Shown here piece by piece: positions 15,046 through 30,247 of a stretch of DNA of 32,000 bases (within the stretch, counting starts at the first letter, position 1; the number at the start of each line of letters is the position of its first letter). Location of the stretch: the NCBI RefSeq assembly GCF_000015025.1, contig NC_008578.1:960001-992000 (forward strand), read 5' to 3'. The DNA is from Acidothermus cellulolyticus 11B. GTDB taxonomy: Bacteria > Actinomycetota > Actinomycetes > Acidothermales > Acidothermaceae. The notes below the pieces were generated by a model that saw only the letters and a list, made by a program, of their open reading frames with translations, made no database searches and was not told the origin of the DNA. A program made the translations under genes and the position numbers.

Positions 15046-15075
15046 TTGACGTCCCCTGACCGTCCGGCCTAGCGT
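15046..15075 (+). promoter_or_regulatory. Putative sigma-70-type promoter of nitrilase gene (TTGACG-N18-TAGCGT)
   Basis: -35 TTGACG at 15046-15051 and -10 TAGCGT (TANNNT) at 15070-15075, ~35 nt upstream of ATG 15110. Confidence 0.45.
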
Positions 15076-15081
15076 AAGGAA

Positions 15082-15093
15082 GCAAACGATTGT
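15082..15093. promoter_or_regulatory. Operator-like site A, GCAAACGATTGT (motif RCAAACGRTTGC)
   Basis: CG-centred near-palindrome 6 nt downstream of the putative -10. One of five intergenic copies of the motif. Confidence 0.55.
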
Positions 15094-15109
15094 GAACTGG
15101 GAGGTGCGG

Positions 15110-16222
15110 ATGGGTGATGAATACCCGACCGTGCATGCCGCGGCTGTCCAGGCGGCCTCCGTCTTCCTCGACCGGGAACGGTCGACGCAGAAGGCTTGTC
15201 GACTGATCCGGGAGGCGGGTCGCGGAGGCGCTGACATCATTGGTTTTCCGGAGGGATTCATTCCGGCGCATCCCATCTGGTTTCACTTCCACCCCGCAAC
15301 GGGGTCGATCGCGACCGAGCTGAGCGTCGAATTATTCAAGAACGCCGTTGAAATCCCGGGACCGGAGGTAGTCGAGCTGCAGCGGGCAGCGGCTGATGCC
15401 CGCGCCTACGTTGTCGTTGGCGTCTGCGAGAAACGCCCCAATACGTTCGGCACGCTGTACAACAGCCAACTGTTCATCGGACCGGACGGTACACTTCTTG
15501 GCTGCCGCCGTAAGATCACGCCCACCGTGGGAGAGCGTCTCGTGCACACCGGCGGCAGCGGGGACGGTTTGTCGGTGTTCCGGACGGATTTCGGGCCGGC
15601 GAGTGCACTCATCTGCGGAGAGAACTCCAATCCGCTGGCCATTTTTGCGCTGACCGCGCAATACACCCAGGTGCACGTCATGAGCTGGCCGTGTCACTTT
15701 CCGACAACCGGCGCCCCGATGCGCGACCGGGTCTCGGTGGATTCCCGGGCCTTCGCTCAGATGACCAAGGCATACGTCATGAGCTGCTGTGGAACAGTCG
15801 ACGAGACCGCTCTCGCGAAGCTTCGTCTCAGCCCGGACGACGAGGAACTCATCCGCCGCCCCGACTTTTGCGGCGGATCCCTCATCGTCGCACCGGATGG
15901 TCGGGTGATTGCCGGACCACTCGGCAACGAGGAAGCCATCCTCTACGCGGATTTGGATCTGGAACTCGGGATTCGGATGAAATTGCGTCACGATTTCGCC
16001 GGGCATTACAACCGCCCGGACATTTTTGAGCTTCGGATCCGCACTGCGGAGCCTCGACTGCTCACCGTCCGGGACACTGCCGAAAATCCGGTTCTCGAAC
16101 AGGTCGAGGGCCCTGCGCGGGCCGAACAAGTTTCTGCACCGGTGCGGTTCGCCGTCGAGCAGGGCGGCCTGCCGAGCCTAACCGGTGGTCTCGGGGTAGA
16201 CGTTGGCGGTGAGCAGCACTAG
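15110..16222 (+). CDS. Nitrilase-superfamily carbon-nitrogen hydrolase (nitrilase-like)
   Basis: Nitrilase-type N-terminus HAAAVQAASVFLDRERS. Glu-Lys-Cys triad context: GFPEGFIP, CRRKITPT, LICGENSNPL. RBS GGGAGG lies 5 nt before ATG 15110 (GTG 15092 is an alternative). The 3' end overlaps the convergent cupin gene by 45 nt. Confidence 0.85.
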   Translation: MGDEYPTVHAAAVQAASVFLDRERSTQKACRLIREAGRGGADIIGFPEGFIPAHPIWFHFHPATGSIATELSVELFKNAVEIPGPEVVELQRAAADARAYVVVGVCEKRPNTFGTLYNSQLFIGPDGTLLGCRRKITPTVGERLVHTGGSGDGLSVFRTDFGPASALICGENSNPLAIFALTAQYTQVHVMSWPCHFPTTGAPMRDRVSVDSRAFAQMTKAYVMSCCGTVDETALAKLRLSPDDEELIRRPDFCGGSLIVAPDGRVIAGPLGNEEAILYADLDLELGIRMKLRHDFAGHYNRPDIFELRIRTAEPRLLTVRDTAENPVLEQVEGPARAEQVSAPVRFAVEQGGLPSLTGGLGVDVGGEQH

Positions 16223-16528
16223 ATCGCCGGTCGAATCGGCCCAAAGACCGTGGGGTTCCCGGATGTCGGTGACAATGAGATCGCCGGGTTCGATCGCCCT
16301 GCGTTCCTTTCCAACCATCGCCTCACCGCGTCCCTGGAGAACGCAGAAAACGTGTTCGTAGTCGTCGATATGTGGACCGAATGCTCCGCCGCGCTCGATC
16401 CGGGTGAGCGAGAGTCGCGTTCTGCCGCCGCGTTCGGTGGGCAGCAGCAGGTACGAGGTCACTTGATCAGCTCCTCGGCGCTCAACGTGTCGCCAACCAT
16501 TTTCCTCGGGAGTAAAGATCCGGCCCAT
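16178..16528 (-). CDS. Cupin-domain protein
   Basis: Small beta-barrel protein with cupin-like motifs (GAFGPHIDDYEHVFCVLQGRGE, IEPGDLIVTDIREPHG). RBS GAGGAGGA lies before ATG 16528. Confidence 0.7.
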   Translation of the reverse strand: MGRIFTPEENGWRHVERRGADQVTSYLLLPTERGGRTRLSLTRIERGGAFGPHIDDYEHVFCVLQGRGEAMVGKERRAIEPGDLIVTDIREPHGLWADSTGDLVLLTANVYPETTG

Positions 16529-16704
16529 CGTCGTCCTCCTCGCGGGCGAAACTCCTCGTCGCGCCGACACGCAATGTGTCGAGCAGGGCTTCCGTCGACG
16601 GAGTGGCTCCTTGGCTCCTCGATGCTATGACCTTTCGTGGTGCAGTGTCACAGCGTCCACAGAGAACCCCTTCGCGTAGCACGGGCATCTAGAGGAAGGA
16701 TGCA

Positions 16705-17172
16705 ATGGCTGGCGGATCAGTGTTCGTCAAGGAAATCGTTCGAGTGCCGGGACTCGAGGAGACCGCCGAATTCGGGTACTCGCAGTGTGTGCGGGCCGGG
16801 CCGTTGGTCTTCATCGCCGGGCAGTGTGGACTGAACGAGCGGCATGAGGTCGTCTCCAGCGATTTCCTCGAGCAGGCGCGGACTGCACTCGATCGTGTAC
16901 ATGCCGCGGTCCGGGCGGCCGGTGGAACGCTCGGTGACATCGTCGCGATGACCGTCTTTCTCACGGACACCAGCCTTGGTCGGATCTTCACGGCGCTCCG
17001 GAGGGAGTACTTCGGCGGCGACTTCCCGGCGAGCGCCTTGATTGGCGTGCATAGTCTCATGCCTACGGGTGCGATGATCGAGATTCAGGCGATCGCCGTT
17101 CTTGGCGCGAGCGGTCAGCCAAATCCGACCGGTGGGCCGAACGATTGCGGACGACGCGGCTTCAGGCCGTAA
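16705..17172 (+). CDS. RidA/YjgF-family reactive-intermediate (enamine/imine) deaminase-like protein
   Basis: YSQCVRAGPLVFIAGQCG ... DIVAMTVFLTD ... IEIQAIAVL is typical of the RidA family. RBS AGAGGAAGGA lies upstream. Confidence 0.85.
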   Translation: MAGGSVFVKEIVRVPGLEETAEFGYSQCVRAGPLVFIAGQCGLNERHEVVSSDFLEQARTALDRVHAAVRAAGGTLGDIVAMTVFLTDTSLGRIFTALRREYFGGDFPASALIGVHSLMPTGAMIEIQAIAVLGASGQPNPTGGPNDCGRRGFRP

Positions 17173-17177
17173 AGCCT

Positions 17178-17189
17178 GCAATCGTTTCT
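17178..17189. promoter_or_regulatory. Operator-like site B1, GCAATCGTTTCT (reverse complement AGAAACGATTGC)
   Basis: Matches the regulon motif. Lies 6 nt after the RidA stop, at the start of the 304-bp non-coding leader. Confidence 0.4.
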
Positions 17190-17444
17190 TCCAGACATTG
17201 ATCTCGAAAGAGGCCTGCGCACTGCGGTCGAGTGACAGGAGCCTCCCGACGTGCACCGGCCGACGGTGCGATGTCACCCGGCATGCGCGCCAGACAGCGC
17301 AGTTCCGCCACGCATGTGCGACCGAGGACGCCGTCCGGGCCGGGTGCTTCGCCGACAACGTCACGGAAATGTTGCGACCGTATTGGACGGCTGTGCCGGC
17401 TCTTGACTTGGCTCGGAACTCGGCGGATGCTAAGGCTCAAGCAT

Positions 17445-17456
17445 GCATCCGTTTGC
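17445..17456. promoter_or_regulatory. Operator-like site B2, GCATCCGTTTGC (reverse complement GCAAACGGATGC)
   Basis: Matches the regulon motif, 21 nt upstream of the permease GTG. Its left part pairs with CGGATGC at 17424-17430 as an inverted repeat. Confidence 0.5.
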
Positions 17457-17476
17457 AGTGCGGTGGGAGGCGGATA

Positions 17477-18244
17477 GTGCAGCCGGACTGGCGGCGGCGC
17501 ACCCGAGCCCTTGCCGGATACGCCGGCGGCGTCCTGCTGGGCGTTGCCGCGTGGCAGATCGTCGGGAGTCACAGCCAACCGCAGATCTTCGTTACCCTCA
17601 CCGCGACCCTGCGGCACCTCGGCAGCATGATCGACGATGGTACCTTGCCGCAGGCGCTGGTGAATTCGTTCTCGGTTTACGGCGCAGGGGTGGGAATTGC
17701 GATTCTTCTGGGTGCCCTCGGCGGTCTGCTTCTCGCACGAATTCGCGTGTTGCGGGTCGCCTTCGAGCCGTACATCATGGGGCTCTACGCCACGCCGCTC
17801 ATTGCGTTGATCCCGTTCATCCTCGCTCTGCTGGGGTACCGGTTCTGGCCGAAGGTCGTCGTCGTCTTTCTCTTTTGCGTTTTCCCGGTATTGCTGGCTA
17901 CCCAGCGAGGCGCCCAGAGCGTAGCGGTTGAGTTGATGGAGGTTGCCAAACTTTATCGATCGAGTGAACGGGCGATTTGGTTGCACGTCGTCATTCCGTA
18001 CACCCTGCCGTTCTTCATGACGGGTGTTCGCCAGGCGCTGGCCCGGGGACTTGTTGGCATGATCGCTGCCGATATCTTCCTCAGTGCGAACGGGCTCGGC
18101 GGCTTGCTCGTCTCGGCGGCCCAACAGTTCAGCACCGCCGAGATGCTCGCCGTTGTTCTCGTGATTACCGTCGCAGGCTTGATGCTGATGGCGGTCGGCC
18201 GGCTCGTGGAGAAGTACTTCGCTCGGTGGCGGGTGACCGGATGA
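17477..18244 (+). CDS. ABC transporter permease (NitT/TauT / SsuC-like family)
   Basis: Six-TM BPD-transporter permease with an EAA-like loop (EVAKLYRSSERAIWLHVVIPYTLP). GTG 17477 is preceded by GGGAGG. The upstream 125 codons of ORF 17102 are not protein-like. Confidence 0.85.
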   Translation: MQPDWRRRTRALAGYAGGVLLGVAAWQIVGSHSQPQIFVTLTATLRHLGSMIDDGTLPQALVNSFSVYGAGVGIAILLGALGGLLLARIRVLRVAFEPYIMGLYATPLIALIPFILALLGYRFWPKVVVVFLFCVFPVLLATQRGAQSVAVELMEVAKLYRSSERAIWLHVVIPYTLPFFMTGVRQALARGLVGMIAADIFLSANGLGGLLVSAAQQFSTAEMLAVVLVITVAGLMLMAVGRLVEKYFARWRVTG

Positions 18245-19071
18245 GCAGCGGTGTGGAAACGTTGCGCAGTACTCCGGTACGCGGAGACGACGAATGGGCG
18301 GCCGCGGGTGCCGGACCGTGGTGGTGTCGTCCCGCTGTGCTTCGTATTGCTGCGGGCGTGCTCATTCTTGCGGTCTGGCAGTTTGTCGTCGGATCGTGGG
18401 CTCCCCATTACGTGGCCCGACCGATCGGGGTCGTGCGCGACCTGCCGAAGGTCTTGACCGACAACGTCTTTTATCACGACCTCGGCAGTACGCTCTTCGC
18501 GGTCATCGTCGGCCTTCTCATTGCTCTCGTTGGCGGTAGTCTTCTCGGCCTTGTGGTGGGTCGACTGAGCGACGTGCAACGCGTTCTCGGCATGTACGTC
18601 AGCGGCCTCTATGCGATGCCCATCATCGCGCTGGTCCCGCTCATCACGGTCTGGTTCGGCTACAGCGCGACCACGCGCCTCGTCGTCATCGTCATCGAAG
18701 CAGGATTGCCGATCGTCTACAGCGTCGCGGAGGGAGCGCGGGCCGTCCCGGTGATGCACATCGAGGTGAGCCGGCTCTACCGTGCGCCCTGGTGGCGGGT
18801 CTGGGGCGGAGTCGTCCTTCCGGCGGCGGTACCGTACGTGCTTGCCGGCGTCGATCTGGCCATCGGCCGAGCGCTTATCGGCGCTGTCGCCGCTGAGTTC
18901 ATTGCAGCCGTCCATGGACTGGGCTATTACGTGCTCTCTCACGTCAATTCCTTCAAAGAGGATCAGGCATTCGTTGCTGTCTTAGCCTTGGCGCTCCTTG
19001 CCGTGCTCCTCCGGGCGGCGGTCAATGGGGCGACTCGGCGATGGCTCCGGTGGTACCGGCAGAGTGGCTGA
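18241..19071 (+). CDS. ABC transporter permease (second subunit, same family)
   Basis: Paralogous permease (EVSRLYRAPWWRVWGGVVLPAAVPY). ATG 18241 overlaps the previous stop (ATGA). Confidence 0.85.
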   Translation: MSSGVETLRSTPVRGDDEWAAAGAGPWWCRPAVLRIAAGVLILAVWQFVVGSWAPHYVARPIGVVRDLPKVLTDNVFYHDLGSTLFAVIVGLLIALVGGSLLGLVVGRLSDVQRVLGMYVSGLYAMPIIALVPLITVWFGYSATTRLVVIVIEAGLPIVYSVAEGARAVPVMHIEVSRLYRAPWWRVWGGVVLPAAVPYVLAGVDLAIGRALIGAVAAEFIAAVHGLGYYVLSHVNSFKEDQAFVAVLALALLAVLLRAAVNGATRRWLRWYRQSG

Positions 19072-19082
19072 GCGAGGGAACC

Positions 19083-19937
19083 GTGACCGCTTCACCGACG
19101 ATTCGCGTTGAGGGCTTGACGAAAGCCTTCGGCACGAGGGTTGTCTTCCGCGACCTCTCCTTTACGGTGGGGGGCGACGAAATTGTCTCCATCGTCGGAC
19201 CGTCCGGTTGCGGAAAGACCACCCTGCTGCGTTGCGTTGTCGGCTTGATGGCTCCAACCGATGGCGCGGTGTACATTCACGATCGGAGGGTGACCGAACC
19301 GCCGCCCGGAGTGGCGATGGTGTTCCAGAATTTTGGTCTCTTTCCATGGAAGACCGTCACGGCGAACATCGCCTATGGGCTGGTTGTTCAGGGCGTGCCG
19401 GCACGGGTCTGGCGGCCGAAAGTTGAGCACCTCATCAAGCTTGTCGGTTTAGCGGGTTTCGAGAAGGCGTATCCGTACCAACTCTCCGGCGGCATGCAGC
19501 AACGTGCCGGTCTCGCGCGTGCACTGGCCATCGACCCCACGGTCCTGGCGATGGATGAGCCGTTCGCCTCCCTTGATGCACAGACCCGTGACCTCCTGCA
19601 GCTTGAGGTGCTGCGGATCTGGGATGCACACCCGGTGGCGACACTCTTCGTCACGCACTCGATCGACGAAGCTGTGCTGATGGGGGATCGTGTCGTGATT
19701 TTGCGTGGCCGGCCGAGTCAAATCTTCGACATTGTGACTGTTGGACTACCAAGGCCCAGGACGCGGGAGGCCGTCGACACGGAGCGGTTCCGGATCGTAC
19801 GCGATTACGTCTGGAACGCGGTGATGCAAACGGATTCACCGGCATCTCCCCTCAACGATGCTGCAGCGTCCGTTCACCAAGGCGTCGCTTCTTCGGCACG
19901 TATCGTCGGGCACGAGACAGGACAGGAAAGAAGATGA
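19083..19937 (+). CDS. ABC transporter ATP-binding protein (NitT/TauT family)
   Basis: Walker A GPSGCGKTT, signature LSGGMQQR, Walker B LAMDEPFASLD. GTG 19083 is preceded by GAGGGA (ATG 19041 is an alternative). Confidence 0.88.
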   Translation: MTASPTIRVEGLTKAFGTRVVFRDLSFTVGGDEIVSIVGPSGCGKTTLLRCVVGLMAPTDGAVYIHDRRVTEPPPGVAMVFQNFGLFPWKTVTANIAYGLVVQGVPARVWRPKVEHLIKLVGLAGFEKAYPYQLSGGMQQRAGLARALAIDPTVLAMDEPFASLDAQTRDLLQLEVLRIWDAHPVATLFVTHSIDEAVLMGDRVVILRGRPSQIFDIVTVGLPRPRTREAVDTERFRIVRDYVWNAVMQTDSPASPLNDAAASVHQGVASSARIVGHETGQERR

Positions 19938-21106
19938 CAACACGCGCACTCAACCAGCGGCTGGCATGGGCCAGCCTTCTCACCGCAGGAATGCTTGCCC
20001 TTGCAGCGTGCAGCAGTTCCAAGCCGGCGTCGACGTCCGCGGCATCCTCGACGGCTGCACCGAGTAGTGCAGCGTCCAGCTCGGCGAGCTCTCCGGCAAG
20101 TTCAGCGAGCGGGTCGGCCGGCGCCTCGGCACCCACGGCGCCGCACGGCACCGCCCCGGTGAGCCCCCCTCCGGCAGGACCGCTGCCTAAGCTGACCATC
20201 GGAAGTCCAGGCGTGCCGCCGGTCGTCTCCGGTCTGCTTCCCTACATCGCCGACAAGAAGGGCTTTTACAAGGCGTTCGGCGTCGACGTGACGGTGAAGA
20301 GCTTCACGACTGGTACCGATGCCACGCGAGCCATGTCCACCGGACAGATTGACATAGCCATCGCGCCTCCCGCTCAGGTGGTGGCATTGGTCGCGAAAGG
20401 CATCCCTATCGTCGCGATCCAAGGACAAGAGAATCCTGACTGGGTTGTCGTCTCTACCGATCCGGCCATCAACTCGTGTCAGAAACTCAAGGGTCAGGGC
20501 GTCGGTGTCGACGCGATCGGCGGCATCCGGTACACCGCACTTGCCGTGATGCTCAAGACCTGCGGTCTTACCATTAAGGACGTTCATCCGCTGGCCTTCC
20601 CAGGTGACGCCAACCCGCAAGCAGTCATCGCCGGTCAACTGAAGGTGTCCGTGCTGCACCTCAATGAGGTGGTAGCGGTTCAGCAGCAACTCGGCAAGCC
20701 GCTGACCACCGTGATGGTGCAAGCGCAGGTTGTGCCGAACTCCATGTATGAGATGTTCGCCACCTTGAAGAGCAAGCTCGACCAGAACAGGGACGCTTTC
20801 GTCCGGTTCGTTGCTGCGCAGATCGCTACCTTGAATTGGATGTTTGATCCCGCCAATGCCGACGAGGTGGCTCAGCTGGCGACCGTGGTTGGCGACAGCG
20901 CCCAGGTGATGAAGCAGGCGATGGCCGAGTACAAGCAGATGGATTTCTGGAGCCTTGACAGCGCCGGACTGCCGCAGACGAATGTTGAGAATGTCATCAA
21001 ATCTCAAGTCGCGGCAGGCAATGTGCCGGCGGACAAGGCCCCGACTTACAGCCAGATCGTCGACCTCTCGGTGTACCAGGACGCGCAGAAGCTCGTCCAG
21101 CCGTAG
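19934..21106 (+). CDS. ABC substrate-binding lipoprotein, NMT1/THI5-like (SsuA/TauA-type)
   Basis: Signal peptide with lipobox LAAC, then a ~65-aa Ser/Ala/Pro linker and a type-2 periplasmic-binding fold. ATG overlaps the ATPase stop (ATGA). Confidence 0.85.
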   Translation: MTTRALNQRLAWASLLTAGMLALAACSSSKPASTSAASSTAAPSSAASSSASSPASSASGSAGASAPTAPHGTAPVSPPPAGPLPKLTIGSPGVPPVVSGLLPYIADKKGFYKAFGVDVTVKSFTTGTDATRAMSTGQIDIAIAPPAQVVALVAKGIPIVAIQGQENPDWVVVSTDPAINSCQKLKGQGVGVDAIGGIRYTALAVMLKTCGLTIKDVHPLAFPGDANPQAVIAGQLKVSVLHLNEVVAVQQQLGKPLTTVMVQAQVVPNSMYEMFATLKSKLDQNRDAFVRFVAAQIATLNWMFDPANADEVAQLATVVGDSAQVMKQAMAEYKQMDFWSLDSAGLPQTNVENVIKSQVAAGNVPADKAPTYSQIVDLSVYQDAQKLVQP

Positions 21107-21233
21107 CCGTGAGGCGGCATGCCGGGTGAACCGGTTGGCCGAGCGGATGACGTTCAGGCAAGCGCTTCGATAACGAGCCGAAGCGGTGCGGAGTGCGCAT
21201 GAACCGTGCGTACGGCCGGTGCGGCGTCGATGC

Positions 21234-21279
21234 GGCGGTTTCCTGGCCCACGAAACGACCGGCGGGCCAGGAAACCGTC
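21234..21279 (+). terminator. Strong hairpin (13 perfect bp GGTTTCCTGGCCC / GGGCCAGGAAACC, extendable to ~16 bp, 14-nt loop); possible U-tail-less terminator of the ABC operon
   Basis: Arms read directly at 21237-21249 and 21264-21276, ~130 nt after the binding-protein stop. There is no T-tract, so the assignment is tentative. Confidence 0.4.
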
Positions 21280-21547
21280 CACCGGCCCCCTCGCCGTGAC
21301 TGCTTCCGTCCGCCGCAGTCTGTTTGGTCCACTGAACGTGGGTGTCCGGCGCTGCGGCGGTGTCGTTACCCGAACGGTGGAGATCAATGGAAACCAAGGG
21401 AAAGTCCGGCGGTGGTCGGGACGAGTTGATGCGCACGGCAAACCTGGCTGCGGTGCTTCGAATCGAGCGTTGCGCCGGACGTCCTGCGCGCATCGGACAG
21501 ACGCTGGGCGCGCTGATCGCCCTGAGGCCGGCGGAAGGTGGAGGACC

Positions 21548-22621
21548 ATGGTGGATGAGCGCGTAAGAATCGCGATTGAGAATTGGGGCCCCCGCTTCAC
21601 GACGAACGGGGTGACGTACAGCGACTTCCACGAGGTGCTCAGTCGCATCACCACGTGGGAGGAGTGGTGCTCGGCGTGGTGCACCGCCGCGGAGCCGTAC
21701 GTGGAACTGGGCAGAGCGGCGCTTGACGAGGGGCGTACGTTGTCCGCAGGAGATCACTTCTCGCAAGCAGCCGTGTATTATCACTTTGCGAAGTTTCTCT
21801 TCGTCGATGACATGGAACAAATGCGCGCTGCGCACCAGAAGGCCGTGGAGTGTCTCACCACCGCCCTGCCCTATCTCGATCCGCCGGGTCGGCGCATCAC
21901 CGTTCCGTTTGAAGGCGCGCGGATGGTCGGCATCCTGCGCCTGCCGCGCGGCGAGCCGCCTTTCCCCGCGGTCATGCTCATTCCGGGGCTTGACTCAACC
22001 AAGGAGGAGTTCCGTTCCACCGAGCAACTCTTCCTGCAGCGTGGATTGGCGACATTCTCTGTCGACGGACCCGGCCAAGGCGAGGCCGAGTACGACTTAC
22101 CGATCCGGCCGGACTGGGAGGTTCCAGGCGCGGCGTTGCTCGATGCCCTGGCTTCTCAACCTGAGATTGATCCAGCCCGGCTGGGGATCTGGGGCGTTAG
22201 TCTCGGAGGTTATTACGCTCCGCGGCTGGCTAGCGGTGATCAACGTGTCAAGGCGTGTATCGCCCTTGCCGGACCCTGGAACTTTGGTGCGTGTTGGGAC
22301 GGACTCAACGAGTTGACCCGGGCGGCGTTCCGGGTCCGATCGCGGAGTCGTTCCGACGAGGAGGCACGCGCAAAAGCCGCCCAACTGACGCTCGACGGCC
22401 GCGCGGAAAGGATTCGCTGCCCCTTACTCGTCGTTGCCGGAAAGCGGGATCGACTGATTCCTTGGCAGGATGCGGTCAGACTCGCCGAGGCGGCAGGGTC
22501 GCAGGCGGAATTGCTCCTGCTGGAGAACGGAAATCACGGCGGCATGAACGTTGCTGCGCAGCATCGGCAGCGATCGGCGGATTGGATGGCCCGCATTCTC
22601 GGCGGGCGAGTGGCCGGATGA
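21548..22621 (+). CDS. Alpha/beta hydrolase, DHPON-hydrolase/FrsA-like family
   Basis: Nucleophile elbow GVSLGG. Family-like blocks NWGPRFTTNGVTYSDF, YYHFAKFLF, GLDSTKEE and DGPGQGE. ATG 21548 is preceded by GGAAGGTGGAGGA. The upstream in-frame stretch is not protein-like. Confidence 0.8.
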   Translation: MVDERVRIAIENWGPRFTTNGVTYSDFHEVLSRITTWEEWCSAWCTAAEPYVELGRAALDEGRTLSAGDHFSQAAVYYHFAKFLFVDDMEQMRAAHQKAVECLTTALPYLDPPGRRITVPFEGARMVGILRLPRGEPPFPAVMLIPGLDSTKEEFRSTEQLFLQRGLATFSVDGPGQGEAEYDLPIRPDWEVPGAALLDALASQPEIDPARLGIWGVSLGGYYAPRLASGDQRVKACIALAGPWNFGACWDGLNELTRAAFRVRSRSRSDEEARAKAAQLTLDGRAERIRCPLLVVAGKRDRLIPWQDAVRLAEAAGSQAELLLLENGNHGGMNVAAQHRQRSADWMARILGGRVAG

Positions 22622-22692
22622 CATGAACCGTCTGCGCGACTCAGCGGTGCGGTTCCCTCACAGTGTGCGATGGGATAAGGAGGTTGTCAAAC

Positions 22693-23349
22693 ATGGCGCC
22701 GAAACAGCGCATCAGCTACGTTCCCTTTGATGCGATGGACGAGGCGATGCAGGCGGAAATTCTCCGTTGTGCGCGCGAGGGCACGCCGCGGCCGGAGAGC
22801 TCCGCGGTCCGCGCCCACGCTCCGAACGCCTTCTGGGCGTTCGCCAATTCGTGGAAAGCCTTGTTTCACGAGGGAATCTGCGACCACGCGATCAAGGATC
22901 TGTGCCGGATCTACATTTCCCGGACGGTCAAGTGTGAGTACTGCGGTAATCAGCGGTCAACAAAGGCGATGGCGAAGGGCCTGTCGGAGGCTCAGTATGA
23001 CGAGTTGTTGAACTTCGAGTCATCCGACAAATACGACGATCGTCAGAAAGCCGCACTTGCGTATGCCGAGGCGATCGCGTGGGGGACAGACAGCGACGAG
23101 CTGTGGGATCGTCTTCACCGCCATTTCTCCGAGGTCGAATTGGTCGAGCTCGGCTGCTTCATCGCGTTGACGTTCGGTCAGCAGAGCTGGATTCGGCTGC
23201 TGAACATCGAGCACCATGAGTATCTTCCGGGAACGTCGGCCGGCATGGCGCCCGGCTTCGAGACGCGCGACGCCCTGGAGAAGACGAAAGCGTCCTCCGA
23301 CTACTGGGCGGTGAAGGTGGCAGGCGGACCACGCTCCTCCACCGCGTGA
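22693..23349 (+). CDS. Carboxymuconolactone decarboxylase (AhpD-like) family protein with CEYC motif
   Basis: CMD-domain helices around VKCEYCGNQ. Strong RBS AAGGAGG lies before ATG 22693. Confidence 0.8.
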   Translation: MAPKQRISYVPFDAMDEAMQAEILRCAREGTPRPESSAVRAHAPNAFWAFANSWKALFHEGICDHAIKDLCRIYISRTVKCEYCGNQRSTKAMAKGLSEAQYDELLNFESSDKYDDRQKAALAYAEAIAWGTDSDELWDRLHRHFSEVELVELGCFIALTFGQQSWIRLLNIEHHEYLPGTSAGMAPGFETRDALEKTKASSDYWAVKVAGGPRSSTA

Positions 23350-23372: not shown

Positions 23373-24512
23373 CTAGAGCTCGGTCAGAATCGGAGAGTGG
23401 GGTCGGCTCGGGGATACGCTGTCGGGCCGGTCCTGCGTGGCGGGAGCACGAAGCGTCGTCTCACCGCTTTGCCTGGCGCCCCCCGGCCGACGAGAAGAGG
23501 CCGGCGGAGCAGTCGAGCCCCGGACGACAAGCTCCAACGGGAGAAGGATCGATTTCGCGGGCGTATCGGGCTTGTGAAGGCGTTCGAGGAGCATGTGGGC
23601 CGCCTCGGACCCGACCCGATAATGCGGAATGCGCACCGTGGTAAGGGCGGGCTGAAGCTTGTCAACGATGGGCATGTCGTTGAAGCCGACGATGCTGAGC
23701 TCGTCAGGGCAGTGAATGCCGCGCTCGCGCATGAGGTCGTAACACCCGAGCGCCAGGAGGTCGTTGCCGGCCAGGACGGCGGTGAATTCCACGCCGCGAT
23801 CAAGGAGTTCGGCAAGGCCGCGGGCGCCCTCCGCTTCGGTCCACGCGCTGCAGTGGGCAACGAGGTCGTCATCGTGCGGCAAGCCAAGGTCCTGCAGCGC
23901 TTGCCGGTAGGCGCGCAGCCGGAATTGACCAGTCGACGTGTGCTGCGGGCCGGCGAGATGTGCGATGCGGCGATGACCGAGCGTCACCAGGTGATGCACC
24001 GCGAGGTACACGCCGCCCGCGTCATCTCCGGTCACTGACGGGAAGCCGGGGGTGTTCATTCGCCGGTTGATGAGGACCAGCGGCACCCGCTGCTCCCCCA
24101 GCCGCTGGAGAAGCGGGTCCTCCAAGAGTGCGGTCGCCAGAATGAGTCCGTCGACCTGGCGGGCGCGCAGCGACGCGATGTGAGCGGCCTCGCGTTCCTT
24201 GTCGTTGTCTGTGTTGACAAGCAAGAGGCTGTACCCGAGAGGGCTCAGCACGTCGTCGATGCCGCGCACAATCGGTGGAAACAGGAGGTTCGTCAGGTCA
24301 GGGATGACAACGCCGATCGAATTCGTGCGGTTCGTTTTCAGACTTCTCGCGATCGGGTTGGCGACGTAGCCGAGCTGCGCGGCCGCTTCGAGGACCCGTT
24401 GCGCCGTCTCCGCGCTCACCATCGAGCGGGTGGCGGGATTGAGCGCCCGCGATGCGGTGGCGGCATGGACGCCGGCCAATCGCGCGACATCGCGGAGGCG
24501 GGGCACGGTCAT
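23373..24512 (-). CDS. LacI-family transcriptional regulator (candidate regulator of the accessory block)
   Basis: HTH LRDVARLAGVHAATASRALN, hinge ARSLKTNRTNSIGVVIPD and a sugar-binding-type core. A ~50-aa low-complexity C-terminal tail follows. Start taken at MTVPRL (ATG 24512). Confidence 0.85.
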   Translation of the reverse strand: MTVPRLRDVARLAGVHAATASRALNPATRSMVSAETAQRVLEAAAQLGYVANPIARSLKTNRTNSIGVVIPDLTNLLFPPIVRGIDDVLSPLGYSLLLVNTDNDKEREAAHIASLRARQVDGLILATALLEDPLLQRLGEQRVPLVLINRRMNTPGFPSVTGDDAGGVYLAVHHLVTLGHRRIAHLAGPQHTSTGQFRLRAYRQALQDLGLPHDDDLVAHCSAWTEAEGARGLAELLDRGVEFTAVLAGNDLLALGCYDLMRERGIHCPDELSIVGFNDMPIVDKLQPALTTVRIPHYRVGSEAAHMLLERLHKPDTPAKSILLPLELVVRGSTAPPASSRRPGGARQSGETTLRAPATQDRPDSVSPSRPHSPILTEL

Positions 24513-24617
24513 GAGTCTCATTATCCGGGTGAACAACCGATTGTCCATGGAAAGCAGCGGCGGGAGCGGCTCGCGCAGTGGCGCGGAAGGAGTGCACCGT
24601 CTCGCGCCGTCCGCTGC

Positions 24618-25535
24618 TCAGCTGGTCGGGTTTGGGGGAAATTCTCGATCCGTGACCGCTGCGAGCACGGTGGCAGACTCGGTCTCGGCGCCCATGGAGG
24701 CGCCTGAACCGTACTGGAGGCGCAGACGGAGGACGGTAGCCCACGCATCAGTGTCGATGCGGCCGTCCGGAATGAGTCCCTCGCGGTCGTTGACCAGTGT
24801 CCGATAGAAGAGATTGGCCGCTGTCGGGGAGAGTCCCATCTCGGCAGTGATCAAATCTATCGTCTCGGAGCGATACCGAGGGTCGGTGGTCCGTCGCAGC
24901 GCTTCCGTCCACGCCGCCGCCAACTGACGGGCGAGCCCGCGATGAGCGTCGAGCCAGCTCGTCGTCGTCGCCAACACGCTTCCCAGGTAGGGCTCAAAAC
25001 GGTCGACGACTCGCATCAGTCGGTTGCAGCCGGCTTCTTCGGCGAGGATGTCCTGACCGGCGTTGAGCATCGTCGCGTCGCACTCACCTGCGAGCAGGGC
25101 GGATCGTCGACGGGGGGTGGCGCCGAGCTCGACGACGTCGAATTCGTCCCGCCGGATGCCCGCCGTGGCAAGGAGACCAAACATCGCCAGCGCGAAGCCG
25201 GAATGCGTGACGTCGACGGCCACGCGCCGCCCGATGAGCTGGCTCGGGTCTCGAATCTCAGGTCGGGCAAGGAGCGAGAGCCCTAAACCGCGATCGATAC
25301 CGAGCAGGATGCGGAGATCGAGCGGCTGTCCCAGCCGAGCGGCGAACCGGTAGGCGAGGACATTGTCCGGGCTCGTCACCACCACGTCGTACTCCCCGGC
25401 GGCGAGTGCGGCGAACTGCGCCAAGGACGAGGCGACGCGCTCGGCGTGCAGCAGGATGCCGTCGGCGGCGAGCGCCGTGATGACGCGGGGGAGCACCGGA
25501 GAGGGACTGAAGTAGCCGAGGCGCACCTCTGACAT
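24618..25535 (-). CDS. NMT1/THI5-like periplasmic-binding-fold protein without signal peptide
   Basis: Starts MSEVRLGYFSPSPVL with no hydrophobic leader or lipobox. Has a type-2 PBP-like alternating pattern. RBS GAGGAG lies upstream. Immediately upstream of, and co-oriented with, the LacI gene. Confidence 0.7.
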   Translation of the reverse strand: MSEVRLGYFSPSPVLPRVITALAADGILLHAERVASSLAQFAALAAGEYDVVVTSPDNVLAYRFAARLGQPLDLRILLGIDRGLGLSLLARPEIRDPSQLIGRRVAVDVTHSGFALAMFGLLATAGIRRDEFDVVELGATPRRRSALLAGECDATMLNAGQDILAEEAGCNRLMRVVDRFEPYLGSVLATTTSWLDAHRGLARQLAAAWTEALRRTTDPRYRSETIDLITAEMGLSPTAANLFYRTLVNDREGLIPDGRIDTDAWATVLRLRLQYGSGASMGAETESATVLAAVTDREFPPNPTS

Positions 25536-25548
25536 CGTGACTCCTCAT

Positions 25549-25560
25549 ACAAACGGTTGC
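25549..25560. promoter_or_regulatory. Operator-like site C, ACAAACGGTTGC
   Basis: Regulon motif within the 57-bp divergent region between the NMT1-like/LacI operon and the LVIVD operon. Confidence 0.55.
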
Positions 25561-25592
25561 GTCGATGATAGGGGCAGCAGCTAGGCTGAGCC

Positions 25593-26840
25593 ATGCAACC
25601 GGGGCGTGGAGGTGACTGGACGGTGATCGACGGTCCGGACGGCGGATATCGCCCTTCCGAGCGGGGTTTACGGCTGACCGGACACCATGATCTCGGCGGT
25701 CGGGGCGATGGGATGCAGGTGATGCGCTGGGGATCGGCGGTGTACGTCGGACACGTCGGCACCAGCCGCGCCGGCACGTCCGTCCTTGACGCCTCGGATC
25801 CGGAACGACTTCGACTCGTCGAGCAGTGGCCGGCCCCCAACCGTTCGCATACACACAAGGTTCAGGTCGCGGACGACGTGCTCCTCGTCAATCACGAGAA
25901 GTTCCCCTACCGCGTACCGGCCGACGGACCGGTCTCCGCGGGCGTAGCCATTTACGACGTCAGCCGCCCTCTGGAGCCCCGGCGGATCGCCTTCTGGGAG
26001 TGCGGCGGCATCGGGGTGCACAGGATCGTCTGGACCGGGGGACGGTATGCGCACATGTCAGCGACGCCGGCGGGTTTCCGGGACCGCATCTGGATCGTGC
26101 TCGACCTCGCTGATCCATTCCATCCGGTGGAGGCCGCGCGATGGTGGTGGCCCGGTCAACGGGACGACGAGGTGCCCGACTGGCCGGCGGAGCTGCGTTA
26201 CGCCGCGCACCATGCGTTGATCGCCGACGGACGGGCGTTCGTTGGCTATGGCGATGCGGGCATGGTGATCCTGGATGTCGCCGATATCACCCGGCCACGG
26301 TTGCTTCACCGTGTTTCCTGGCCGGACGGCGGCGATACCCACACCTGCCTGCCGCTGCCGGGGCGCCGTCTCATTGCTGTGACGGACGAGCAGGTCCGGG
26401 ACGGTCCCGGCGCGCCGCCACGGAAGATTCGGCTGTTCACGATGGACGATCCACCCCGGCTGGTGAGCGTGCTGCCGGCACCGGACGACGAGTTCGCGAG
26501 CCTGCCGCTGCGCTACGGTGCACATAATCTTCACGAGAACCGGCCGCGTTCCTACCAGAGCGAGGACATCCTCTTCGCGACGTATTTCAGCGCCGGGCTC
26601 CGTGTTTATGACATCAGCGATCCCGGGCAGCCGGTGGAAATCGCCCATTGGTGTCCGCCGGTGCCGCCGGGTCAGGCGGTGCCGCAGATCAACGATGTAT
26701 TCGTCGACCATGAGGGGCTCATCTGGGTGACGGATCGGCTGAACGGCGGCCTCTACGTGCTCGAGCCGGAACCGGAACTGCGGCGGCGGATGCTCCATCA
26801 CGCGCCACCCACCCGGTCCGGCGGCCCGAGAGGATGGTGA
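25593..26840 (+). CDS. LVIVD-repeat beta-propeller protein (COG5276-like), no signal peptide
   Basis: Repeated LVIVD-type units: VAIYDVSRPLEPRRI, MVILDVADITRPRLL, LRVYDISDPGQPVEI, TSVLDASDPERLRL. Confidence 0.68.
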   Translation: MQPGRGGDWTVIDGPDGGYRPSERGLRLTGHHDLGGRGDGMQVMRWGSAVYVGHVGTSRAGTSVLDASDPERLRLVEQWPAPNRSHTHKVQVADDVLLVNHEKFPYRVPADGPVSAGVAIYDVSRPLEPRRIAFWECGGIGVHRIVWTGGRYAHMSATPAGFRDRIWIVLDLADPFHPVEAARWWWPGQRDDEVPDWPAELRYAAHHALIADGRAFVGYGDAGMVILDVADITRPRLLHRVSWPDGGDTHTCLPLPGRRLIAVTDEQVRDGPGAPPRKIRLFTMDDPPRLVSVLPAPDDEFASLPLRYGAHNLHENRPRSYQSEDILFATYFSAGLRVYDISDPGQPVEIAHWCPPVPPGQAVPQINDVFVDHEGLIWVTDRLNGGLYVLEPEPELRRRMLHHAPPTRSGGPRGW

Positions 26841-27463
26841 TTCCGGTGAAGGCGCCGCGCATTTCGCTCGTGGATCCCGCATCGGCGGAAGGAGAGGTCG
26901 CGGAGATCTTCGCGCGTCAAGTAGCTCAATTCGGCACCGTGAGCAACTTCTACCGGACGCTGGCGCATGCCCCGGCCGCCATCGCATGCTGGACGACGAT
27001 GAATGCCGGGCTTCGCCTCCGCTACGTGACGGACGACCTGAGTTTCCTCCAAGTCGAACAGATGGCCATCATCAAGACGTCACAGCTCAACGGCTGTGAC
27101 TATTGCCTCGGTCACAATCTCGAGCTGGGCCGCGACGCGGGACTTAAGCCGCGCCAAATCGCCGCCGTACTCGGTACCGTGCCGGACGACGACGTGCTGA
27201 CCCCCGCGCAGCGGTGTGCGGTCCGGTGGGCGGAAGCGGTCACATTGCTCACCGCCGAAGACGACGACGAGCTTTTCACGGAACTGCGCCGGCACTTTTC
27301 CGAGCGCCAAATCGTCGAACTCACCTTCCTCATCGGCATGTGGAACTGCTCGAATCGGGTCAACCGTGCACTGCGGGTCGAGCTCGAGGCGCCGGAATGC
27401 CGACTCCACTTCGTCCGGCCAGCCGGCTCTCCGACCCGTACCGAAAGGGGGCGAGAGGGGTGA
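26834..27463 (+). CDS. Carboxymuconolactone decarboxylase (AhpD-like) family protein with CDYCLGH motif
   Basis: CMD-domain protein with LNGCDYCLGHN. The start overlaps the LVIVD stop (ATGGTGA) and the stop overlaps the next start (GTGA). Confidence 0.8.
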   Translation: MVIPVKAPRISLVDPASAEGEVAEIFARQVAQFGTVSNFYRTLAHAPAAIACWTTMNAGLRLRYVTDDLSFLQVEQMAIIKTSQLNGCDYCLGHNLELGRDAGLKPRQIAAVLGTVPDDDVLTPAQRCAVRWAEAVTLLTAEDDDELFTELRRHFSERQIVELTFLIGMWNCSNRVNRALRVELEAPECRLHFVRPAGSPTRTERGREG

Positions 27464-27966
27464 CCGAGCACGTCACATTCGTCGTCAACGGCGTGGAACG
27501 GACGGTGACAGGCTCTCCGGATGTCCCGCTGTTGTACGTGCTGCGGAATGATCTCGGTCTCATGGCAGCGAAATTTGGCTGTGGCATGGGACTCTGCGGC
27601 ACATGCACGGTTCTCCTCGACGGCCGTCCGGTGCATTCCTGCGACACGCCGCTGTGGGCGGCGGCCGGCAAGACCGTCGCCACGTTGGAGGGCATCCTGG
27701 ATGAACCGGTGGGCGCCGCCTTGGAACGAGGATTTCTTGACCACCAGGCATTGCAGTGCGGATATTGCACGGCCGGGATGATGGTCACTGCGGCTGCATT
27801 GCTGCGGGAGAAGCCCAATGCCGACGAGGACGCTGTTCGGGCGGCGCTCAGTCGCAATCTCTGCCGCTGCGGGGCACACCAGCGTATTGTCGCCGCAATT
27901 CGCAGCGCTGCGCAGCAACTCGCGAACAGTGCTTCCGCCGGCAACCCAGCGGAGGACGGCCAATGA
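27460..27966 (+). CDS. (2Fe-2S)-binding small subunit of molybdenum hydroxylase (IorA-type)
   Basis: Two [2Fe-2S] cysteine clusters: GCGMGLCGTCTV...SC and QCGYCTAGMM...LCRCGAHQRI. GTG 27460 is coupled to the CMD stop. Confidence 0.9.
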   Translation: MTEHVTFVVNGVERTVTGSPDVPLLYVLRNDLGLMAAKFGCGMGLCGTCTVLLDGRPVHSCDTPLWAAAGKTVATLEGILDEPVGAALERGFLDHQALQCGYCTAGMMVTAAALLREKPNADEDAVRAALSRNLCRCGAHQRIVAAIRSAAQQLANSASAGNPAEDGQ

Positions 27967-30104
27967 GCGGTTCGACGTACGCGGCATGGTTCGACCGGCC
28001 GAAGCCGAGCCTGGAGAGAAATCCGAAGCTCCTGAGGTGGCTGGATTTCGGCACCGAAGGCCGCATCACCGTCAAGACGGGGAAAGTTGAGCTGGGACAG
28101 GGGATTCTCACTGCGCTCGCCCAGATCGCGGCTGAGGAGCTCGACGTCGACATCCGTCGCATCGTCGTGGAGCCCAGCCGGACCGGAGTGAGTCCCGAAG
28201 AGGGATACACGGCCGGGAGTCTCTCCGTCCAGCACTCTGGTGATGCCATCCGCCAGGCCTGTGCGCATGCACGGGCGCTGTTCCTGCAACTGGCCGCTCG
28301 AGAGCTTGGTGTTGCTGCGGAGGCGCTGCGCGTCGACGACGGTGCCGTCGTGACGACCGATGGCCGCCGTACCGACTACTGGCGGCTCGCACGCTACCTC
28401 AACGAGGACATTGACGTCGATCCGACGGTCGCGCCGAAGAAGCCTGACGAGTACGTCATCGTCGGGCGTTCGCATGCCCGAGTGGACATTCCGGCCAAGG
28501 TGCGTGGAATTCCGCGGTTCATCCACGACATCCGCTTGCCGGGCCAGCTGTTCGGGCGGGTCGTTCATCCGCCGGCACGGGTTGCCACCCTGGTCGCGGT
28601 CGACGAAGCAGCCGTGACGGCGCTGCCAGGCGTTGTCCGCGTGGTACGCGAGAACAATTACCTGGGCGTCGTGGCTGAGCGTGAAGACATCGCCGTCCGT
28701 GCCGCCAAACTGCTCAACGAGAAGGCGCGCTGGAACGTCGAGCCCAGCCTGCCGGATGAGTCCCGGCTCGTCGATTACCTCACGTCGGCTCCTTCGGAGG
28801 AGAAGGTCTTGTACGAGAGCGGCGAGCCGGGCTCAATTTCCCGGTACCTGCGCCGGCGCTTCTCCCGCGGGTACATCGCCCACGCCTCGCTCGCGCCGTC
28901 GTGCGGTATCGCCCGGTGGGACGGCGACCGCTTGACCGTCTGGACGCACTCGCAGGGAATTTACGCGCTGCGTCAGGACCTTGCCCGGGCTTTTGGCCTG
29001 GACGAAAGGAATATCGAGGTTATTCACGCCGAGGGTGCTGGTGCGTACGGTCACAATCCGGCTGACGACGCGGCCTACGATGCAGCATGGCTGGCAGCTG
29101 CGGTTCCGGGACGGCCGGTTCACGTCATGTGGTCTCGTGAGGATGAGTTGTCCTGGGATCCGTTCGGCGCGGCGATGGTGGTCGACGTGACGGTGGGGCT
29201 CGACCCTGCGGGCGCCATCGCCCACTGGGAACAGCATGTGTGGAGCAACGGGTTCTCCAGCCGCCCCGGGATGTTGCCCGAACCCGCGTTCTTCGGCGCC
29301 TGGTACAAGGGTCGCACGACGTCCCCGATGGTCTCCGTGGATCCGCCGTTGAGCAACGGCGCGGGCTCGGGACGGAATGCGGTACCCGGATATGCCGTGC
29401 CCTCGATTCGGGTGGTGACGCACCGATTGCTTGAAATGCCGCTGCGGACGTCCTCGCTGCGTTCGCTCGGTGCTCACCTCAACGTGTACGCGATCGAGTC
29501 GGTCATTGACGAGGTCGCGCGGGAATCCGGACGCGATCCGGTCGAGTTTCGGCTCTCGATGCTCTCCGATCCACGCGCGCGACGCGTCGTGGAGACCGTC
29601 GCCGAGCGGGCCGGATGGGGGAGCGCGTTGCCCTCCGGCGGCGCCTGGGGGCGGGGCCTCGGATTTGCGCGGTACAAGAATATGGGTGCCTACTGCGCAG
29701 TTGTTGCCGACGTGGAGGCGGAGACTGACATTCGGGTGCGTCGGCTTACGATCGCTGTTGATGTCGGCCTGGTCGTCAATCCTGACGGCGTGCGCAACCA
29801 GATTGAGGGCGGCGCAATTCAGTCGGTGAGCTGGACAACGCTCGAGCAGGTGCATTTTGACCGCTATCGCGTCGTGACCAGTACCTGGGAGGATTACCCG
29901 ATTCTCGACTTTTCCCGGGTGCCGGACGTCGACGTGGTTCTCATCGATAATCCTGAGGCGCCGCCGGTCGGTTCCGGCGAAGCGGCAACAGGACCCACCG
30001 CAGCGGCCATCGGCAACGCGGTCGCCGATGCGCTGGGTGTTCCGGTTCGAGCCCTGCCCCTGGTTCCCGAGAACGTCGTGGCGGCATTGACGACCACGTC
30101 CTGA
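27963..30104 (+). CDS. Molybdopterin-binding large subunit of xanthine-dehydrogenase-family hydroxylase (IorB-type)
   Basis: 713 aa. IorB-like N-terminus (KTGKVELGQGILTALAQIAAEELDV) and C-terminal Mo-co binding blocks (NPDGVRNQIEGGAIQS, PPVGSGEAATGPTAAAIGNAV). ATG overlaps the small-subunit stop (ATGA). No twin-arginine signal. Confidence 0.88.
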   Translation: MSGSTYAAWFDRPKPSLERNPKLLRWLDFGTEGRITVKTGKVELGQGILTALAQIAAEELDVDIRRIVVEPSRTGVSPEEGYTAGSLSVQHSGDAIRQACAHARALFLQLAARELGVAAEALRVDDGAVVTTDGRRTDYWRLARYLNEDIDVDPTVAPKKPDEYVIVGRSHARVDIPAKVRGIPRFIHDIRLPGQLFGRVVHPPARVATLVAVDEAAVTALPGVVRVVRENNYLGVVAEREDIAVRAAKLLNEKARWNVEPSLPDESRLVDYLTSAPSEEKVLYESGEPGSISRYLRRRFSRGYIAHASLAPSCGIARWDGDRLTVWTHSQGIYALRQDLARAFGLDERNIEVIHAEGAGAYGHNPADDAAYDAAWLAAAVPGRPVHVMWSREDELSWDPFGAAMVVDVTVGLDPAGAIAHWEQHVWSNGFSSRPGMLPEPAFFGAWYKGRTTSPMVSVDPPLSNGAGSGRNAVPGYAVPSIRVVTHRLLEMPLRTSSLRSLGAHLNVYAIESVIDEVARESGRDPVEFRLSMLSDPRARRVVETVAERAGWGSALPSGGAWGRGLGFARYKNMGAYCAVVADVEAETDIRVRRLTIAVDVGLVVNPDGVRNQIEGGAIQSVSWTTLEQVHFDRYRVVTSTWEDYPILDFSRVPDVDVVLIDNPEAPPVGSGEAATGPTAAAIGNAVADALGVPVRALPLVPENVVAALTTTS

Positions 30105-30200
30105 ACATCGCCCCGGCTCGGCGCTTCGTCGGGCGACGGCCCGCGAACCTCGCGATTCCAAGGCCGCTCCGACTCGTGGCGCTCGATGGCGGCGCGAGCG

Positions 30201-30230
30201 TTGACAGTCGAGCCCCACGCTCGCTAAGGT
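30201..30230 (+). promoter_or_regulatory. Putative sigma-70-type promoter (TTGACA-N18-TAAGGT) of the dehydrogenase gene
   Basis: -35 TTGACA at 30201-30206 and -10 TAAGGT at 30225-30230, 40 nt before GTG 30270. Confidence 0.5.
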
Positions 30231-30235
30231 GATTA

Positions 30236-30247
30236 ACAAACGATTGC
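30236..30247. promoter_or_regulatory. Operator-like site D, ACAAACGATTGC
   Basis: Regulon motif 5 nt downstream of the putative -10, nearly the same geometry as site A. Confidence 0.55.

Follow-up and report, generated by a model that had tools for sequence, protein, structure and literature searches.

A 32-kb stretch of Acidothermus cellulolyticus 11B DNA, here called the window, carries a cluster of transport and catabolic genes, a gene for a LacI-family regulator, and a set of short CG-centred palindromes in non-coding DNA. The palindromes appear to be the operators of the regulator. Five 12-mers of this kind were listed in a preliminary description of the window; all five are found in the sequence at the positions and on the strands given there, and all five are in non-coding DNA. 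Window scans were confined to the 32 kb. Genes were identified by Pfam, NCBIfam and PDB matches, and RNAs by an Rfam search. The genes of the putative regulon are the following.

15110-16222, + strand: nitrilase of branch 1, CN_hydrolase (Pfam, NCBIfam; closest solved structures NitA and cyanide dihydratase).
17477-18244 and 18241-19071, + strand: two ABC permeases (Pfam).
19041-19937, + strand: ABC ATPase (Pfam).
19934-21106, + strand: NMT1-type binding protein (Pfam).
About 21548-22621, + strand: α/β-hydrolase like 2,6-dihydroxy-pseudo-oxynicotine (DHPON) hydrolase (Pfam; structure 2JBW).
22663-23349, + strand: CMD-family protein (Pfam).
23373-24512, − strand: LacI-family regulator with a helix-turn-helix (HTH) and a periplasmic-binding-protein-like core (Pfam).
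24618-25535, − strand: NMT1_2-family (NMT1-like) protein, probably cytosolic, heading the operon to which the regulator belongs (Pfam).
25593-26840, + strand: LVIVD β-propeller protein (Pfam, NCBIfam).
26834-27463, + strand: second CMD-family protein (Pfam).
About 27460-27966, + strand: 2Fe-2S subunit of the hydroxylase (Pfam).
27963-30104, + strand: large subunit of the molybdopterin (Mo) hydroxylase (Pfam).
30270-31214, + strand: NAD(P)-dependent dehydrogenase of the 3-hydroxyisobutyrate dehydrogenase (HIBADH)/tartronate-semialdehyde reductase type (Pfam, NCBIfam).

Positions 17477-23349 hold six co-directional genes, and the hydrolase and CMD genes are probably on the ABC-transporter transcript. 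The closest solved structure to the α/β-hydrolase, 2JBW, is the DHPON hydrolase, a C-C bond hydrolase, and the match is full length (E = 1.2e-45).

The cluster has no transcription-factor gene other than the regulator. The open reading frame (ORF) of the regulator matches a LacI-family protein of A. cellulolyticus 11B at 100% identity and displays the domains PF00356 (E = 4.3e-12), PF00532 and PF13377. It aligns full-length to the CcpA, PurR and LacI structures, with CcpA scoring above PurR, and its hinge motif ARSLK aligns with the PurR hinge and with ARGL of CcpA. Aligned with 28 orthologs (63-71% identity), the regulator shows a recognition helix and a hinge with little or no variation, and hinge residues L58 and K59 are invariant. 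A near-invariant DNA-reading helix and hinge fit a conserved operator.

The database copy of the regulator has 391 amino acids (aa) and starts at 24548. The orthologs (approximately 339 aa) align from ATG 24512 and not from ATG 24548, thus ATG 24512 is the probable true start. The 391-aa copy probably carries a spurious 12-residue N-terminal extension, which hides one of the palindromes (site 6 below) in "coding" DNA; with the start at 24512, site 6 is most likely upstream of the regulator transcript and not inside the gene. At its C-terminal end (23373-23500) the Acidothermus regulator shows a low-complexity tail, about 40 aa long and with many Pro, Ser and Arg residues, which the orthologs do not have.

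The regulator alignment also served for the retrieval of 80 orthologous loci, the 80 best of at least 590 genome stretches matching the regulator (1.45 Mb in total; regulator identity 56-73%). The loci come from Nocardioides, Actinoplanes, Streptosporangiaceae, Nonomuraea, Actinomadura, Nocardia, Streptomyces, Mycobacterium and many metagenome-assembled genomes. A scoring matrix of 18 nt was trained solely on 192 non-coding ortholog sites from these other genomes, with the window excluded. First-order Markov simulations served as the null for the ortholog motif, and 1000 Markov simulations as the null for the window. Coding and non-coding DNA were separated by a crude classifier based on G+C content at third codon positions (GC3), which errs toward coding; some intergenic sites that it mislabels as coding (site 3 of the window and sites in Nocardioides) were inspected by eye. 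The candidate sites, with their matrix scores, are as follows.

Site 1, 15082-15093, GCAAACGATTGT: operator, 6 nt after a −10-like hexamer and 5 nt before GGGAGG, with ATG at 15110; score 18.2, the best in the window.
Site 2, 17178-17189, GCAATCGTTTCT on the + strand: a weak candidate, or an auxiliary operator, which begins 6 nt past the stop of a RidA-like gene and is 267 bp from site 3.
Site 3, 17445-17456, GCATCCGTTTGC: operator, between TTGACT (17403-08) and GGGAGG/GTG 17477; score 16.7.
Site 4, 25549-25560, ACAAACGGTTGC: operator, in the 57-bp divergent gap 25536-25592; score 15.3.
Site 5, 30236-30247, ACAAACGATTGC: operator, 5 nt after a −10-like hexamer and upstream of GAGGAA and GTG 30270; score 17.8.
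Site 6, 24533-24544, ACAACCGATTGT: 20 nt upstream of ATG 24512, found with a matrix built from the five sites.

The pattern RCAAACGRTTGC, with at most one mismatch, is matched 6 times in the window where 0.56 matches are expected, and 6 is reached in 0 of 100 shuffles. The sixth match, 7382-7393, is within a long coding ORF. The symmetric form RCAAnCGnTTGY describes the motif better, and all six sites fit it. This form has four exact matches in the window (15082, 24533, 25549 and 30236) and ten with at most one mismatch, versus 3.19 expected. A central CG was required in the motif scans of the window and of the ortholog sites, and is present at the centre of every candidate window site and of every ortholog site scanned.

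The ortholog-trained matrix ranks sites 1, 5, 3 and 4, in this order, as the four best positions of the window, and all four are within the 8.5% of the window that is non-coding. Scores of 15 or better have a simulated mean of 0.17 per 32 kb, and four or more such matches are found in 0 of 1000 simulations. The strong window sites are situated 13-32 bp upstream of start codons and 4-6 nt after −10-like hexamers of predicted promoters. Four of the five 12-mers first described, at 15082, 17445, 25549 and 30236, are thus firm operators by sequence; the one at 17178 is weak and doubtful as an operator. The palindrome at 24533, which the first description had missed, is plausibly an autoregulatory operator. 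Over a 205-nt region, where the best background match reaches 5.2 at the 95th percentile, the core 12-mer scores 14.2 at site 6 and 11.4 at site 2.

The predicted promoters next to the sites show the following elements.

15046-15075, + strand: putative nitrilase promoter, TTGACG (15046-51), 18 nt, TAGCGT (15070-75), which fits TANNNT.
30201-30230, + strand: putative dehydrogenase promoter, TTGACA (30201-06), 18 nt, TAAGGT (30225-30), a layout kept in about 20 orthologs.
24520-24547, − strand: promoter-like element, TGGACA, 16 nt, GATAAT, which matches at 10/12 positions in a sigma-70 scan.

The placement of two sites behind TTGACR-N18-TANNNT promoters, proposed earlier, is read directly in the sequence, with spacers of 6 nt and 5 nt. 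Similarly, site 3 does stand just upstream of the ABC permease start at GTG 17477, and site 4 is within the 57-bp divergent region. Read on the − strand, site 4 comes 4 nt after TATCAT, and 2 nt separate it from GAGGAG, which precedes ATG 25535. In the + direction it overlaps a −35 hexamer, TTGCGT, and this hexamer is 19 nt upstream of TAGGCT (25582-87). TAGGCT ends 5 nt before ATG 25593 and no ribosome-binding site is found there, thus the LVIVD transcript looks leaderless. No other stretch of the 16.7 kb scanned matches sigma-70 as well as the 24520-24547 element in front of the regulator. The −10-like hexamer of this element stops 7 nt short of ATG 24512, again without a ribosome-binding site, and the regulator transcript also looks leaderless by its sequence. 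Site 6 overlaps the −35 hexamer and spacer of this element.

The preliminary description had set phylogenetic footprinting as a check, and the motif is kept next to orthologous genes in the 80 loci, in other genera. RCAAnCGnTTGY has 111 exact matches in the 80 loci versus 1-5 in the Markov simulations. When the window is included, 96 of 115 exact matches are non-coding even though the classifier over-calls coding DNA, which agrees with the non-coding preference claimed for the motif. A non-coding site is called automatically in 72 of the 80 loci. The automatic calls give no site in six loci, and all six hold paired one-mismatch sites, cTGCAAWCGAGTGCAg, in the hydrolase/NMT1-like intergenic region. 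The cross-genome consensus is GCAAWCGWTTGC, and the symmetrised profile of the 111 ortholog sites is aYY-GCAAWCGWTTGC-RRt with weak flanks. The preferred half-site is GCAATC, and GCAATCGATTGC and GCAAACGATTGC dominate among the 111.

The genes next to the ortholog sites recur as well. Immediately downstream of a site is the NMT1-like gene in 52 loci, a Peripla_BP_6 binding protein in 30, the α/β-hydrolase in 26, the dehydrogenase in 21 (20 of these sites are exact), an FAD amine-oxidase-like enzyme in 16 and the regulator itself in 14. Smaller numbers are found for an MFS transporter and the NMT1-type ABC ATPase (7 loci each), the LVIVD protein (3), the CMD protein (2) and the NMT1-type binding protein (2). 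The median distance from site to start codon is 16-47 nt. In front of the dehydrogenase orthologs, the same order is found across genera: TTGACx, 17-18 nt, a TAGGxT-like −10, 3-5 nt, the operator, a ribosome-binding site and ATG. This layout matches site 5 of the window. In three loci (L072, L075 and L079) a site is present 22-25 nt upstream of the regulator, and these loci also carry LVIVD, NMT1-like and dehydrogenase genes.

Counted within 10 kb of the regulator orthologs, the NMT1-like gene is directly upstream of the regulator in 64 of the 80 loci, and a dehydrogenase is found near it in 53, an α/β-hydrolase in 46, a CMD protein in 12, an LVIVD protein in 9 and a Mo-hydroxylase in 8. Nitrilase, cupin and RidA genes are found near it in none. 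By gene content, the putative regulon has a conserved core made up of the NMT1-like/regulator operon, an importer of MFS or ABC type, and two enzymes, the DHPON-hydrolase-like C-C hydrolase and the HIBADH-type dehydrogenase. To this core are added, variably, LVIVD and CMD proteins, the Mo-hydroxylase, a creatinase-like M24 protein, an FAD oxidoreductase and an aldehyde dehydrogenase.

It is very probable that the 12-mers are operators of the LacI-family protein encoded at 23373-24512, and that together they form an autoregulated repressor-operator regulon of the LacI/GalR type. The footprinting, the matrix ranking and the presence of a single transcription-factor gene all support the earlier proposal that several transcription units are tied to the cluster's regulator. 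The features of the LacI/GalR type are found throughout: an HTH and an effector domain, an ARSLK hinge with a CpG at the centre of the site, an even palindrome, and sites close to predicted promoters.

In the proposed mechanism, a dimer would bind each palindrome through its helix-turn-helix heads, with the hinge-helix leucine of ARSLK inserted at the central CpG. Since the operator begins 4-6 nt after the −10-like hexamer at the promoters of the nitrilase, dehydrogenase and NMT1-like genes, it should cover the expected transcription start there. The operator of the divergent region would also cover the opposing −35, and one dimer could shut both promoters. A repressor bound over the start or the −35 would block RNA polymerase. 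The units predicted to be repressed are the nitrilase gene; the ABC-transporter genes, probably cotranscribed with the hydrolase and CMD genes; the NMT1-like/regulator operon; the divergent operon of LVIVD, CMD and Mo-hydroxylase genes; and the dehydrogenase gene. As the regulator is the second gene of a controlled operon, it would be autoregulated, and a second, weaker operator is probably on its own leaderless promoter. Induction would come from a small molecule of the encoded pathway, either a substrate or an intermediate, whose binding to the sugar-binding-type core releases the repressor. That the protein physically binds the sites, that it represses rather than activates, the inducer logic and the identity of the effector are all inferred here from sequence.

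The effector is probably a nitrogenous, non-carbohydrate compound. No recognisable sugar-metabolism genes are found in the regulon, and the gene content suggests a nitrogenous, non-carbohydrate substrate. The pairing of a Mo-hydroxylase with a DHPON-type hydrolase suggests, by analogy, a nitrogenous heteroaromatic or a ketone. The PDB and NCBIfam matches of the dehydrogenase, M24 peptidase, LVIVD and NMT1-like proteins are too generic to name the substrate. The NMT1-like protein (24618-25535) has a periplasmic-binding fold, and its sole PDB sequence match is marginal (3QSL, E = 5e-4); enzyme, ligand carrier and co-sensor are candidate roles.

Several results weigh against this interpretation. 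Near-matches scoring 10.3-14.3 are found in coding DNA at 7382, 30833, 16885, 25016 and 20974. Site 2, with a matrix score of 10.2, is in the same range as these five coding matches and alone is not above chance, and site 6 reaches only 7.5 with the 18-nt matrix, below that range. All promoters and transcription starts are predictions. The promoters at sites 1 and 5 went uncalled in a strict sigma-70 scan, since their −10 hexamers, TAGCGT and TAAGGT, share just 3 of 6 positions with TATAAT; both hexamers are compatible with the looser actinobacterial TANNNT form. Finally, a nitrilase ortholog is not seen within 10 kb of the regulator in any of the 80 other loci. Compared with the 80 loci, the nitrilase is a lineage-specific recruit added only in Acidothermus, as judged from gene content.

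The most durable alternative keeps the same protein and the same sites but assumes PurR-like logic, in which DNA is bound only when a co-repressor, e.g. an end product, is loaded. The half-site does resemble the PurR box, and PurR is the LacI-family exception that needs a co-repressor (PMC4052901). However, the regulator is at least as close to CcpA or RbsR as to PurR, and its targets serve uptake and degradation (transporters, nitrilase, a C-C hydrolase-like enzyme and Mo-hydroxylase). Substrate induction is the usual logic for genes of this kind. Control by a co-repressor is for these reasons unlikely.

A second alternative is that another transcription factor, such as another LacI paralog, reads the palindrome and that the adjacent regulator has other targets. 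Acidothermus is listed with 7 LacI-family genes in the supplement of PMC4052901, and a CG-centred architecture is common to LacI-family operators. But the motif travels with orthologs of this regulator in 80 loci of many genera, it precedes the regulator's own operon in 52 loci, and the residues that read the DNA are invariant or nearly so in the orthologs. A different reader of the palindrome is thus very improbable. Chance matches, or an artefact of composition or of repeat elements, are effectively refuted: single matches of high score do arise (the null best score has a 95th percentile of 17.1 per 32 kb) and site 2 is within the chance range, but four matches of 15 or more occur in 0 of 1000 simulations, the top four sites are all non-coding and promoter-proximal, the orthologous loci show a 20- to 100-fold excess, and the site flanks are unconserved, thus the site is not a mobile repeat.

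The motif was at first likened to the PurR box. E. coli PurR and its pur operator, ACGCAAACGTTTGCGT, share with the repressor-operator system favoured here the LacI/GalR family, a dimeric reader with HTH and hinge helix, the ARSLK hinge, a palindrome with a central CpG and GCAA arms, and several scattered transcription units under one regulator. The label "PurR-box-like" holds for the central CpG and the arms, but the resemblance is superficial, as orthology, operator centre and targets all differ. The regulator is 30% identical to E. coli PurR and gives 187.7 bits with the PurR model NF007979 of NCBIfam, against a cut-off of 501. The base-contacting positions are AA..R here and TT..H in PurR, and a 2-residue insertion follows the recognition helix here. 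The bases flanking the CpG prefer T/A, whereas the PurR-type AC/GT centre, GCAAACGTTTGC, is present in only 4 of the 111 ortholog sites and is absent from all six sites of the window. The genes targeted serve catabolism and transport (nitrilase, ABC transporter, hydrolase, Mo-hydroxylase and dehydrogenase), not purine biosynthesis, and the logic is probably that of an inducer rather than a co-repressor. PurR orthology, and with it a PurR regulon, is rejected on the model score, the 30% identity, the operator centre and the targets.

LacI, GalR, RbsR and the actinobacterial CelR/CebR are similar in organisation: the regulator is encoded inside its own regulon and autoregulated, and the operators are 12-18 bp CG-centred palindromes at or just downstream of the promoter. 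The difference is in the genes controlled. Carbohydrate metabolism is controlled by approximately 96% of the LacI-family groups with an assigned pathway (PMC4052901), whereas the genes here encode nitrilase, a DHPON-hydrolase-like enzyme, Mo-hydroxylase, CMD and LVIVD proteins and NMT1-type transport. CytR, UriR, AdeR/AduR and HpxR are examples of LacI-family control of nitrogenous-compound (nucleoside or purine) use. Their gene content is different, however, and the CytR model, although the best NCBIfam match of the regulator, gives 227 bits, far below its cut-off of 436.

As to the enzymes, but not the operator, the pairing in the window of a Mo-hydroxylase with a DHPON-hydrolase-like α/β-hydrolase resembles nicotine catabolism in Paenarthrobacter nicotinovorans. 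In that pathway ketone dehydrogenase and DHPON hydrolase act in consecutive steps. However, no other nicotine-pathway genes were identified, and the Mo-hydroxylase is present in only 8 of the 80 loci. The P. nicotinovorans pathway is not known to be LacI-family regulated.

In literature searches on the motif and on the gene combination, the motif turned up in unrelated primers and in one H. influenzae purine/competence paper, and no regulon described with it was found. The accessible part of the PMC4052901 supplement likewise gave no regulog that carries an Acel gene name or has this gene content, which does not prove its absence. The regulon is apparently undescribed, yet of a very well known type, the LacI/GalR repressor-operator system. 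The operator, the regulator and the recurrent targets together give a regulatory handle on an uncharacterised gene set that is widespread in soil and thermophilic Actinobacteria, and the pathway and its inducer become directly testable. With its invariant DNA-reading head, this rare and well-supported LacI regulon outside sugar metabolism also helps the understanding of specificity in the family, and may find use as an orthogonal repressor/operator pair. It further illustrates regulon plasticity, as the nitrilase, and apparently the whole lower-GC segment by a tRNA-Val gene, was wired into the regulon in Acidothermus.

In most orthologous loci (L003-L079), two operators flank the divergent promoters between the hydrolase and NMT1-like genes, e.g. 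at 5222/5303 in L020 and 7855/7953 in L013. The spacings cluster at 66-70, 79-83, 90-91, 97-101 and 108-110 bp, and a Rayleigh test has its peak near 10.5 bp, with R = 0.61 when all pairs are counted and R = 0.48 (p ~0.02) when only unique spacings are. Such helical phasing hints at cooperative or looped binding. Paired operators are frequent for local LacI-family catabolic repressors (PMC4052901). The orthologs, at approximately 339 aa, look too short for a LacI-type C-terminal tetramerisation helix. The 57-bp divergent region of the window holds a single operator, unlike the paired layout of most orthologous loci.

A more extended reading joins three parts: a so far undescribed, actinobacteria-wide LacI subfamily (at least 590 stretches) with a nitrogenous, non-carbohydrate effector such as a pyridine, ketone or nitrile-type metabolite; a catabolic pathway defined by the cytosolic NMT1-like protein, an MFS or ABC transporter, the C-C hydrolase and the HIBADH-like dehydrogenase; and operator pairs at about 70, 80, 90, 100 and 110 bp that would allow cooperative or looped binding without a tetramerisation helix. 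Taken jointly, the three parts make a tentative reading that is possible but falls a little short of probable.

One clade uses a one-mismatch variant of the operator, cTGCAAWCGAGTGCAg, in which the right arm is GTGC in place of TTGC and the site is asymmetric. It is found in the Nocardioides-type loci L015, L017, L022, L035, L036, L039, L042 and L059 at approximately 7740-7890. The variant sites always come in pairs, with TGTCAAG, the opposing promoter's −35, between them.

A 441-bp gap (21107-21547), apparently non-coding, separates the binding-protein gene from the α/β-hydrolase gene in the window; it contains no operator, no Rfam match and no obvious terminator. In 26 other genomes, sites stand just upstream of the α/β-hydrolase gene. 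A riboswitch, e.g. for thiamine pyrophosphate (TPP), in the 300-nt gap upstream of the NMT1-type transporter was considered and rejected, since Rfam finds just a tRNA-Val in the window.

The tRNA-Val(TAC), at 14815-14887, marks a drop in GC content from 0.69-0.72 to 0.62-0.65, and GC3 of the nitrilase-to-hydrolase genes is 0.70-0.76 versus 0.78-0.80. The tRNA at the GC step and the low GC3 suggest that the nitrilase/ABC-transporter segment (15000-23000) was horizontally acquired. By composition, this segment may have been gained next to the tRNA and wired into the regulon afterwards. A second copy of the tRNA-Val 3′ end, as a genomic-island boundary, is not present in the window.

Three further genes are found within or next to the cluster.

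16178-16570, − strand: cupin-domain gene, antisense and convergent with the nitrilase gene, of which it covers the last 45 nt at the 3′ end.
Between the cupin gene and the ABC permeases: RidA-family protein (Pfam).
After the dehydrogenase, downstream of a palindrome at 31276-31287: SRPBCC protein (Pfam).

The divergent region between the cupin and RidA genes (16571-16704) contains no operator, thus both genes appear to be outside the regulon. The RidA-like ORF extends past its conserved domain with a C-terminal tail of about 23 aa (17100-17172). The palindrome upstream of the SRPBCC gene, GCAACCGTATGA, is intergenic, carries two mismatches and has a matrix score of 6.9; it may be a degenerate seventh site or a chance match.

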